Shown here piece after piece: positions 31,341 to 32,859 of a DNA stretch of 64,000 bases. Every line of letters begins with the position of its first letter. The first letter of the stretch is position 1. Source of the DNA: a virus. The stretch lies in the IMG/VR virus record IMGVR_UViG_3300033553_000478, positions 18,834-82,833 of that record; one strand, written 5' to 3'. A program made the translations under genes and the position numbers. Below the pieces are notes generated by a model. That model saw only the letters and a list, made by a program, of their open reading frames with translations. It was not told the origin of the DNA and did not search any database.

Positions 31341-32381
31341 ATGGAAAATTTTCAATTTACCGCCCCGGTTGGAGGCGACAGCAAGAGAATTGATGATGTT
31401 GCATTAATCCCTTCAGGGATGCGACTTTGTACGTTCTATGGACTTGCAGATCTTGGTACCCAAGACAGTAAAAACTTTGGGCCAAAACACAGATGCCAGC
31501 TGGCATTTGAATTCCCTCAAGAATTGAGGATATTTTATGAAGGTGATATTCATAAGCCTTCAGTGATCTGGAGTGAGGAAACTTTCTCAATGGCACCAAA
31601 AGCCAATTTGAGAAAGCATTACGTTCACGGTATGCTTGGCCGTAATCTTAGTGATGAAGAAGCGGCGAAATTCAACATAGCTTCCCTATTAGGAAAGCCA
31701 TTTGTTGCCACCATTTCTCATACTGCAGATGGTAAGTATGCGAACATCACTTCTATTACTCCATTGAGTGATCAGAACAGATTGATGTTTGGATTGCAGG
31801 ATATGAATGTACCTGTGATCAATGATATCTTTGCATATCATATGAGCCAGGGCTTTATTAGTGAGAACTTCAAGAAGCTTCCAAAATTCATTAGAGAAAA
31901 AATAAAAAACTCTGAGGAAGGTGAAGCTCACAAAAAGTCTGGAGGAACATTCCTTGAACCGGATCCAAGTGATTTCAAAAATGCTGGCAAAAAACTTAAG
32001 ATGCTGCCTAATGCAGAGTTCACATACGAACAGTATAAAGCAGCAGAGTGGACTGACCAGATGTTGGTTGATAACGGTAAAGCAGTATGGGAAGCTCCCG
32101 TTGCTCCACCAGCTCCGGTAGGTGCACCAGCAGCTCCACAGGCACCAATCGCCCCAGCTGCTCCGGTTGCTCCACAAGCAATGCCAGCTGCACCGTCAGC
32201 AATACCACCTGCAATGCCAGCTGCTACACCGCCAGCTCCCGCATTGAATCCTCAGGACACCAATGGTAGAATTACCCTTGTACCTGAATGGAGAGGGAAG
32301 CAGTCTGTTGCTGAATGGTTAGCTTCAGGATGGACTGAGGAAGCAATGTTAGCCAAGGGCTACGCTGTTCCAGTAAAGTAG
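31341..32381 (+). CDS. ssDNA-binding/replication protein (short form)
   Basis: DLGTQ...LAFEFP...KANLRK...LLGKPF...YANITSI core, Pro/Ala linker, two WT(D/E)...G repeats; SSB-type DDLPF tail in -1 frame downstream. Confidence 0.7.
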   Translation: MENFQFTAPVGGDSKRIDDVALIPSGMRLCTFYGLADLGTQDSKNFGPKHRCQLAFEFPQELRIFYEGDIHKPSVIWSEETFSMAPKANLRKHYVHGMLGRNLSDEEAAKFNIASLLGKPFVATISHTADGKYANITSITPLSDQNRLMFGLQDMNVPVINDIFAYHMSQGFISENFKKLPKFIREKIKNSEEGEAHKKSGGTFLEPDPSDFKNAGKKLKMLPNAEFTYEQYKAAEWTDQMLVDNGKAVWEAPVAPPAPVGAPAAPQAPIAPAAPVAPQAMPAAPSAIPPAMPAATPPAPALNPQDTNGRITLVPEWRGKQSVAEWLASGWTEEAMLAKGYAVPVK

Positions 32382-32515
32382 AAGGAGTAGGGGAATCAAC
32401 TCAGCAGCCTACTGCTCCACCCGCACCAGCTGAGAAAATTGAAGATCAATTTCCTGCTAACTTCAGCGTGGCTCAAGACGAGCCAGATGAAGAGCACGAT
32501 GATCTTCCATTCTAA
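32378..32515 (+). other. -1 frame extension of SSB (45 codons ending DEEHDDLPF)
   Basis: Open -1 frame VEGVGESTQQPTAPPAPAEKIEDQFPANFSVAQDEPDEEHDDLPF*; stop overlaps next ATG. Confidence 0.8.
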
Positions 32516-32859
32516 TGCACCAGTTTATTTGTAAGGCGAAGTCCGGAGAGCCAATCCCGACTTCGCCTAATAAACTGGAACTTCTGAAAAAGCTTTTAGA
32601 TCATTATGAGAAAACAAATATGTCTTTCAAGTTATCGATCGAACCTATTCAGAAGAATATAAATGAACAGCAGGAATCTTTATACAAGGCGTTCATTTTA
32701 AAAGCAGCAAATCATTTTGGCAACACCTTCCCAGAAATGGAAAACATACTTCGAAATTTAATGCCGGAAGGTCCCAGAGAAAGGTGGAGCACTAATCAAT
32801 TAGATGATTTTATAACCAAGTCCACTGCCTATTTAGGGCAGCACGGATTTCATTTTTAA
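32515..32859 (+). CDS. NinB/Orf-like protein
   Basis: NINEQQESLY...AANHFG...WSTNQLDDFI...GFHF follows NinB-like pattern. Confidence 0.45.
   Translation: MHQFICKAKSGEPIPTSPNKLELLKKLLDHYEKTNMSFKLSIEPIQKNINEQQESLYKAFILKAANHFGNTFPEMENILRNLMPEGPRERWSTNQLDDFITKSTAYLGQHGFHF

Follow-up and report, generated by a model that had tools for sequence, protein, structure and literature searches.

The DNA analyzed here is a stretch of 64,000 nucleotides, hereafter the window, from the virus record IMGVR_UViG_3300033553_000478. The record is the 82,833-bp genome of a cold-spring phage and is rated 100% complete; all coordinates below are those of the window, and all features lie on its plus strand. The subject is the 3' end of a gene whose product is a probable SSB (a protein that binds single-stranded DNA), where a C-terminal tail of the type found on SSBs is encoded in a different frame from the rest of the protein.

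Layout of the locus

The zero-frame open reading frame (ORF), at 31341-32381, encodes an SSB-like protein of 346 amino acids that ends in ...GYAVPVK. It is closed by CCA GTA AAG TAG at 32370-32381, the TAG stop occupying 32379-32381. The -1 frame is open from 32339, the last stop in that frame ending at 32338, to 32515. The two open frames overlap by 43 nucleotides (32339-32381), and any shift between them must fall there. Starting at the slip codon, the -1 frame supplies a tail of 45 codons followed by TAA (32378-32515), which reads VEGVGES…FPANF…DEPDEEHDDLPF, has homologues in relatives and closes with the residues EEHDDLPF. A protein that includes this tail would be 391 amino acids long. 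The -1 ORF lacks an ATG, and the one canonical start within it, a GTG, lies 15 codons from the end. Its TAA stop (32513-32515) shares bases with the ATG of the next ORF (32515-32859), forming TAATG.

An earlier note, made from the letters of this DNA, had proposed that a programmed -1 frameshift adds the tail. It had described the CCA GTA AAG TAG end, a 45-codon continuation without an ATG that keeps the Pro/Ala composition, the TAATG overlap, an A_AAG tetramer before the stop and a possible hairpin beyond it. All of these elements are present: the region past the slip codon continues the Pro-rich style of the linker before it, the tetramer lies at 32375-32378, and a minimum-free-energy fold places a hairpin 5 nucleotides past the AAG. 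The frameshift interpretation is likewise supported by comparison with relatives, in which nine junction types combine a slip tetramer with a covarying hairpin.

Conservation of the tail

A protein search of 5.8 billion clustered proteins returned 18 clear homologues and one marginal match besides the window's own protein. In what follows, P-numbers denote protein homologues and L-numbers denote DNA loci of relatives, which were drawn from IMG/VR and metagenome contigs. The homologues P0002-P0019 match with E-values of 1e-125 to 9e-41, and identity to the window protein is 42-60% for 17 of the 18 and 32% for P0019. Five have the C-terminal tail in frame, ending in VPF in P0010, P0011, P0016 and P0017 and in GVAF in P0019. 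Most of the remaining homologues end where the zero-frame product of the window does, typically with ...GHA(S/T)FQ. Among GenBank phages, a DNA search with the gene found no match, and tblastn gave only four distant matches to a 'phage associated protein'.

Long-type loci with their 3' end present fall into 13 distinct junction types; L002, L004 and L021 run off their contigs, and L026 has an extra early frame break. A tail with a PF end lies in the -1 frame in nine of the 13 types (the window, the L005 group, the L009 group, L010, L013, L019, L020, L022 and L025). It is in frame in one (L024) and absent from every frame in three (the L001 group, L027 and L028). The eight -1-tail types other than the window share 39-47% protein identity with it. 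At the nine sites, the -1 tails are 41-70 residues long, and the tips outside the window are DDLPF in L009, L013, L019, L022, L010 and L025, DDCPF in L020 and QDPPF in the L005 group. Motifs recur between frameshifted and in-frame tails: FPANF in the -1 tails of the window and L025 corresponds to FPPNY in the in-frame tail of P0011, and FDGGPH in five -1 tails corresponds to GNPH in that of P0016.

The -1 tail is under purifying selection. Differences in the -1 frame are concentrated at third codon positions, with counts by position of 8/10/18 between L013 and L019 and 9/11/21 between L013 and L010, and many are synonymous. Given this third-position concentration and the shared motifs, the tail appears to be translated and selected, and as judged from the aligned loci it is a coding sequence that can be reached only through a change of frame. 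The -1 ORFs of L009, L013 and L025, three of the nine, contain no ATG, GTG or TTG anywhere, and the positions of starts in the others are not conserved.

The earlier note had singled out two features for conservation, the -1 frame and the string A_AAG_TAG. The first is conserved at nine distinct junctions; the second is common only to the L009 type, the others having T_TTT_C or T_TTC. The note had also held that homologues with the tail in frame and no conserved shift site would speak against a frameshift. Nine junctions retain both the -1 tail and the shift layout, and some other relatives have the tail in frame or have none.

These states are mixed in the phylogeny. A quick maximum-likelihood tree with 39 rows, made from the core domain, shows in-frame-tail forms interleaved with forms that stop short, a class that here pools frameshifted forms, tail-less forms and forms known from protein only. 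Branches with good support require no fewer than three changes; P0008, for example, which stops at …FQ, is sister to P0016, which has the tail in frame, with 99% support. On the basis of this tree, the device would have been gained or lost repeatedly. Single-base changes seem to switch it on and off, and the closest relatives of the window seem to have lost the tail entirely.

The proposed slip site

The nine sites were aligned on the sole homopolymeric tetramer near the zero-frame stop. In the window, this is the proposed slip tetramer A_AAG at 32375-32378, on which the Lys codon AAG would re-pair on AAA, and its position relative to the hairpin is the same in relatives. The L009 site also has A_AAG, L005, L010, L013, L019, L020 and L022 have T_TTT, and L025 has T_TTC. 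The zero-frame stop follows 0, 1 or 3 codons past the slip codon, and in the window it lies within the spacer between slip site and hairpin. Adjacency to the stop is therefore not a conserved feature; spacing to the hairpin is. The narrowest overlaps, measured as far as the last base of the slip codon, are 16 nucleotides in L020 and L010 and 13 nucleotides in L025, and T_TTT or T_TTC is the sole homopolymeric tetramer in them.

All nine sites have the minimal slippery pattern Z_ZZN, and the 0 and -1 ORFs overlap with the downstream part lacking a start of its own. The sections on bacterial shift sites in the review of Atkins et al. 2016 (PMC5009743) describe a Z_ZZN tetramer as a minimal -1 shift site and A_AAG as the best studied, in agreement with the earlier note, which had named A_AAG as a known bacterial site. 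The same source states, for dnaX, that the pairing of Lys-tRNA is stronger on AAA than on AAG. Two other ways of extending the protein were tried and rejected. Reading TAG as an amino acid takes the zero frame to KE and then a stop, with no tail-like continuation, and a +1 reading gives no tail.

The downstream hairpin

In the window, the minimum-free-energy fold of the sequence past the slip codon places a putative stimulatory hairpin at 32384-32418, with a 5' arm at 32384-32393, a 3' arm at 32408-32418 and one bulge. It has a predicted energy of -12.9 kcal/mol, its first base pair is 5 nucleotides past the slip codon, and it is within the lowest 3.3% of 42-nucleotide segments in the surrounding 7 kb. 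At all nine sites, the minimum-free-energy hairpin opens at +4 to +6 past the slip codon. These hairpins are 32-39 nucleotides long, and each is within the lowest 0.4-4% of 42-nucleotide segments at its own locus. Such spacing is usual for stimulators of -1 ribosomal frameshifting.

Covariation provides further support for the structure. A first covariance model (R1), made from five similar sites, was too sequence-bound and missed the window, L009 and L025. A second, built from the four most diverse sites, had all nine sites as its best plus-strand matches in 100 kb. In the resulting structural alignment, which was fitted to the structure of the model and holds one reverse-strand row of the L009 hairpin (two points to be set against the result), standard pairs fill 93.8% of cells. 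Both sides have changed in five of the seven stem pairs, including G-C to A-U, C-G to U-A, and A-U, U-A and C-G at a single position. For covariation, the alignment scores 0.429 compared with 0.220 in shuffles, none of 500 shuffles reaching the real score, and sliding the 3' arm by 1-3 columns lowers pairing to 20-55%. On this model-fitted alignment, a covarying structure thus lies downstream of the shift site, where one is expected at a distance of about 5-9 nucleotides.

A candidate pseudoknot at 32400-32434 would pair the loop CTCAGC (32400-32405) with GCTGAG (32429-32434), 11 nucleotides downstream. In the window, only 1% of shuffled loops match the downstream pairing of the real loop. It was not accepted as established, since 7-40% of shuffled loops do as well in eight relatives.

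Programmed frameshifting as the probable mechanism

The layout, its conservation, the covarying hairpin and the third-position pattern together make programmed -1 ribosomal frameshifting well supported by comparison. In our judgment, ribosomes very probably make a tail-less and a DDLPF-tailed form of a probable SSB from this one gene through a conserved -1 frameshift. The comparisons leave little doubt that the recoding is real and not an artefact, and slip codon and hairpin are the probable recoding signal.

Under this mechanism, most ribosomes would stop at the TAG at 32379 and release the tail-less protein of 346 amino acids. A fraction would slip back one base on A_AAG (32375-32378), most likely while meeting or held by the hairpin at 32384-32418. 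These ribosomes would then read the 45 codons of the -1 frame and complete the 391-amino-acid form with its acidic tip ...EEHDDLPF, which is of the type that SSBs use to dock partners. Across the family, the tRNA on AAG, UUU or UUC would slip back one base in the same way, and unshifted ribosomes would stop within 0-3 codons. From sequence comparison we infer slippage of the ribosome, the exact codon on which it takes place, and the relevance of both products and of their ratio.

Several observations weigh against this reading or qualify it. An open frame alone is common here, since the genes of this genome are densely packed and mostly overlap the one that follows: an examination of 53 ORFs gave 33 ORF-frame cases with at least 45 open codons in a +1 or -1 frame after the stop. 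The significance of the tail therefore rests on homology and conservation and not on the open frame. The nine sites are related to each other and hence do not represent nine independent events. In addition, the closest relatives of the window, the L001 group (57% identity), are without a tail. Given these tail-less relatives and others with an in-frame tail, the two-isoform arrangement appears not to be indispensable.

The signal itself also has features that count on this side. None of the sites has the canonical heptamer X_XXY_YYZ: the window has A_GTA_AAG, in which the P-site codon cannot re-pair, and L025 (G_TTT_TTC) alone comes near a tandem heptamer. As the canonical tandem heptamer is absent, the efficiency of the shift may be modest. 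Considered alone, the hairpin of the window is unremarkable compared with dinucleotide shuffles (z = -1.35), 18 of 200 folding as well, and for the 5' arm of L020 the downstream partner in the model differs from that in the minimum-free-energy fold. The sections of PMC5009743 on such sites likewise note that those made of a tetramer only usually shift at low efficiency.

Identity of the protein

The protein is quite likely an SSB, and belongs to no named SSB family. This assignment is made because a PF tail occurs throughout the family, the gene lies among replication genes and no known SSB family was found in the complete genome; SSB function is thus a second property that we infer from sequence. 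A profile search of a library of 1.84 billion representatives found 4546 relatives at E≤1e-3. C-termini were tabulated for the best 161 of these 4546, with P0020, P0037, P0110 and P0149 dropped. Among these best 161, 112 end in [PA][FY], mostly as DDLPF and also as DDIPF or DDVPF, and 23 stop just past the last copy of a repeated module, the W-T module described below, as the zero-frame product of the window does. Short relatives of about 170-225 amino acids for which DNA was available have in-frame tips of the PF type in 47 of 49 cases (20 of 22 and 27 of 27). The tail of the window, with EEHDDLPF, has the same combination of an acidic stretch and a hydrophobic-Pro-Phe tip.

The genomic setting is consistent with this function. 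Genes for DnaB and an HU-like protein lie upstream, and genes for an SF1 helicase and a 5'-3' exonuclease lie downstream. The PF00436 profile had no match in the complete genome, and as a control it was positive in 10 of 14 genomes. PF05037, PF10991, PF21265 and PF08804 likewise had no match in the complete genome, a weak negative in that the controls for all four gave nothing. Annotations of relatives point in the same direction: the one in Pseudoalteromonas phage RIO-1 bears the label of a putative ssDNA-binding protein, and residues 8-187 of P0139 match phrog_378, 'single strand DNA binding protein' (E 3e-4; 1 of 150 members). A weak match to phrog_7011 'Gp2.5-like' was obtained for only 7 of 150 members.

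The main alternative, which we consider unlikely while granting it an appreciable chance, is that the frameshift is real and the protein is another replication or recombination factor with an SSB-like docking tip. No similarity to a solved or Pfam SSB family was detected. A Pfam scan of the window protein at E≤0.1 found no match, PF00436 included, and a scan of 150 relatives and 10 others found no match to PF05037 or any other SSB family. In the PDB, a profile search gave nothing below E 0.1. The hhalign program found nothing against T7 gp2.5 as a single sequence, and returned a probability of 0.2% against the T7 gp2.5 family of 23 sequences (PF21265) and of 0.6% against Enc34-type domains (PF10991). 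All of these negatives speak against an SSB, and the alternative also draws support from phrog_862, which the window protein matches over residues 22-145 (E 2.9e-5) and which PHROGs labels 'unknown function'. It accounts less well for an acidic PF tail throughout the family, for a place within the replication module of a genome in which no other SSB candidate was found, and for the whole-domain matches, weak as they are, to the two SSB-annotated PHROGs. In addition, in P0020, L090 and L091 a PF10991 ssDNA-binding domain takes the same place before the same W-T modules. As a lead only, the nearest named clusters in the ESM-Atlas have DUF669 in 10-14% of members (score 0.87). A probable SSB outside the named families remains our preferred assignment.

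Domain organization and neighboring genes

The N-terminal core domain, defined by the profile search, covers about residues 1-215 (31341-31985). It is common to relatives of about 190-225 amino acids that end in frame with ...D(I/L/V)PF, and short relatives align to about residues 19-212 of the window protein. It is followed in the translation by a first W-T module, 'TYEQYK..WTDQMLVDNGKA.W' (32016-32090), a Pro/Ala-rich linker (32091-32228) and a second W-T module (…AEWLASGWTEEAMLAKGYAVPVK; 32301-32378), at the 3' end of which the shift site lies.

The W-T module is about 25 amino acids long, has the consensus TYEQYK..GWTD.QLV.NG.A.W and matches no Pfam family. In P0020, L090 and L091 it occurs several times behind the PF10991 domain and the same linker, and P0149 (2733 amino acids) has 27 stretches that match it. 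It may represent an unnamed interaction or DNA-binding module that is widespread in phages. In L090 and L091, loci of the P0020 type with PF10991 and W-T modules, a tail is absent from every frame.

Phage RIO-1 (L093, NC_021300 15511-16370) was considered as a further frameshift case and rejected. Its protein RIO-1_22 already ends in an acidic …GDW, and RIO-1_23 starts at an ATG of its own and is a distinct ORF. A GenBank note calls RIO-1_23 the 'missing C-terminal segment' of an SSB-like gene, which the sequence contradicts. The …GDW tip of RIO-1_22 resembles that of PA11 gp15 (…DDDIPW).

In many loci of short relatives (L029-L034, L039-L041, L066-L070, L075-L077 and L080-L082), the next gene overlaps in the +1 frame; it is conserved and encodes about 270-345 amino acids. 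Judged by eye, its product looks like a recombination-module nuclease, which hints that short members of the family act in SSB/annealase-exonuclease pairs.

The gene downstream of the window's SSB-like gene (32515-32859) is conserved and encodes 114 amino acids beginning MHQFICK…. The same gene comes next after the SSB-like gene in L001, L024 and L027. In each case, its start (MHQFICK… or MYQFIVK…) adjoins the stop of the longest SSB-like form or shares bases with it, as TAATG or TAG TAG ATG (window 32513-32517; L001, L024, L027). In the window, only frameshifted ribosomes would terminate at TAATG, which suggests that translation of the downstream gene may be coupled to the shifted fraction and hence to the tailed form.

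Other explanations for the frame break

Recoding by other routes is improbable. Either transcriptional slippage on a short A/T run or a ribosomal shift at another tetramer of the overlap could in principle join the two frames: the 43 nucleotides in question contain a second Z_ZZN tetramer (G_GGC, 32357-32360), and L005 has a T5 run. Polymerase slippage is known on runs far longer than 3-5 bases, however, and those present here are only A3 (window, L009), T4 or T5, which makes transcriptional slippage unlikely. A second tetramer is of no help to L010, L020 and L025, in which the overlap leaves T_TTT or T_TTC alone, and the hairpin stands at the spacing of ribosomal -1 stimulators at nine of nine sites. 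Ribosomal slippage at the aligned tetramer is the better account.

It is also very improbable that the -1 ORF is translated separately, as a small, unfused peptide that mimics an acidic SSB tip. The GTG in the window's -1 ORF would allow such a peptide, but this start has no counterpart in the three -1 ORFs that lack ATG, GTG and TTG, and starts are not conserved in the others. Moreover, the sequence that begins at the slip codon is conserved as protein and keeps to the Pro-rich style of the linker, and in the in-frame relatives the same tail is fused to the protein. A fused tail, reached by the -1 frameshift, is favored over this explanation.

Errors were checked on three assembled contigs. 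Those of X1, the probable source run, and of X2, another cold-spring sample, do not differ over 32229-32797, and that of a soil metagenome from another study (X3) covers 32202-32439 with seven substitutions and no gaps. The missing base that the earlier note had considered is accordingly absent at contig level, with no indel in the source run, the second sample or the soil study. The one metatranscriptome of the source study (X4) had nothing matching the stretch. Least probable of all is that the frame was broken by an error in sequencing or assembly or by a recent inactivating indel, the true tail being in frame or a decaying remnant. In favor of this, in-frame tails do occur in P0010, P0011, P0016, P0017 and L024, the break in L026 resembles an error and the comparison rests on contigs rather than raw reads. 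On the other side, the junction is the same in two samples and gap-free in a third study, the -1 offset recurs in eight other diverged relatives, whose tails of 41-70 codons are intact and show conserved end motifs and a third-position excess, and a covarying hairpin keeps constant spacing. This explanation is already largely refuted, and the comparative evidence makes error appear untenable.

Two side observations concern the samples and loci used here. L026, a near-copy of the L009/L023 gene, loses its frame an additional time about 69 codons in, within the core domain; this early break is probably a sequencing error or a pseudogene, separate from the conserved 3' shift. X1 and X2 also contain a second, diverged relative, on a contig that matches only 32505-32562 (the end of the tail and the start of the next gene) with eight differences in 58 nucleotides, and its loose upstream end encodes a different acidic stretch. 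Judging from this diverged contig, at least two related phages share the spring.

Comparison with known systems

The closest analogues appear to be dnaX in its logic, cdd and IS1222 in the type of shift site, and T7 10A/10B and the tail-chaperone G/GT pair in the type of product. In dnaX, the stem-loop is about 5-6 nucleotides away, and the tau and gamma forms differ by a C-terminal, partner-binding part; the replication protein described here would likewise exist in two forms that differ in this way. In contrast to the tetramer here, dnaX has a full heptamer, A_AAA_AAG, together with an upstream Shine-Dalgarno-like stimulator, and its shifted product is the shorter one, whereas here it would be longer and tail-bearing. 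In T7 10A/10B and G/GT, a -1 shift near the 3' end of a phage gene yields a fixed minority of C-terminally extended protein. There, the genes serve structure or assembly and the sites are heptamers, in contrast to a replication-module gene with tetramers.

For dnaX of Escherichia coli (tau/gamma), the relevant sections of PMC5009743 describe a -1 slip on the Lys codon AAG with a downstream stem-loop, as proposed for the window. They also describe slips on A_AAG without a tandem slippery codon in Bacillus subtilis cdd (A_CGA_AAG) and in IS1222 (G_CGA_AAG), and in cdd the shift yields a C-terminally extended protein (PMC5009743). The shift is treated there as incidental in cdd and productive in IS1222 (PMC5009743). 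Unlike in cdd, the arrangement described here is conserved among phages that have diverged, and it includes a hairpin that covaries and a tail that looks functional.

The tail resembles those of bacterial SSBs (E. coli ...DDDIPF) and T7 gp2.5, in which an acidic stretch ends in hydrophobic-Pro-Phe at the C-terminus; the roles of such acidic tails are among the topics of PMC10359462 and PMC7913777. The systems differ in that the core here has no detectable relation to PF00436 or T7 gp2.5 and in that the tip is reached only after a change of frame. DUF669 or N4-type SSBs provide another parallel. According to the sections of PMC4889955 on this family, they are phage-only proteins with acidic C-terminal tails and no recognizable OB-fold signature, occur in phages without known SSBs, and have been argued to be SSBs on similarly indirect grounds. 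Binding of ssDNA was demonstrated for one DUF669 protein (PMC13687109). The present family differs in that PF05037 has no match in the window protein, in the 150 relatives and 10 others scanned, or in the genome.

Implications

Within the literature searched on phage and SSB frameshifting, which left subscription journals and supplements outside, no frameshift-encoded SSB tail is described. The arrangement would be a conserved programmed -1 frameshift with minimal tetramer sites in a new gene family. To our knowledge, programmed frameshifts in replication genes are rare, dnaX being the textbook case. If correct, the present gene would add a second, independent example of recoding that determines if the partner-binding end of a replication protein is present, and its setting is a large and uncharacterized phage family, with 4546 relatives and a function that PHROGs lists as unknown. 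These proteins are cut short by gene callers; 23 of the best 161 representatives stop at the same spot. The loci also provide natural cassettes of tetramer and hairpin, with three different slip codons, for the study of minimal -1 sites, and a natural system in which the dosage of an SSB tail becomes testable.

Tentatively, the frameshift may be a stoichiometry device for a hub of the replisome. It would set the share of SSB subunits that have the partner-docking, self-inhibiting tail, and hence the density of docking sites on coated DNA, and it might couple the downstream gene to the tailed form. If so, repeated retuning of this ratio between 0%, a fixed fraction and 100% would underlie the way in which frameshifted, in-frame and tail-less forms are interspersed on the tree.

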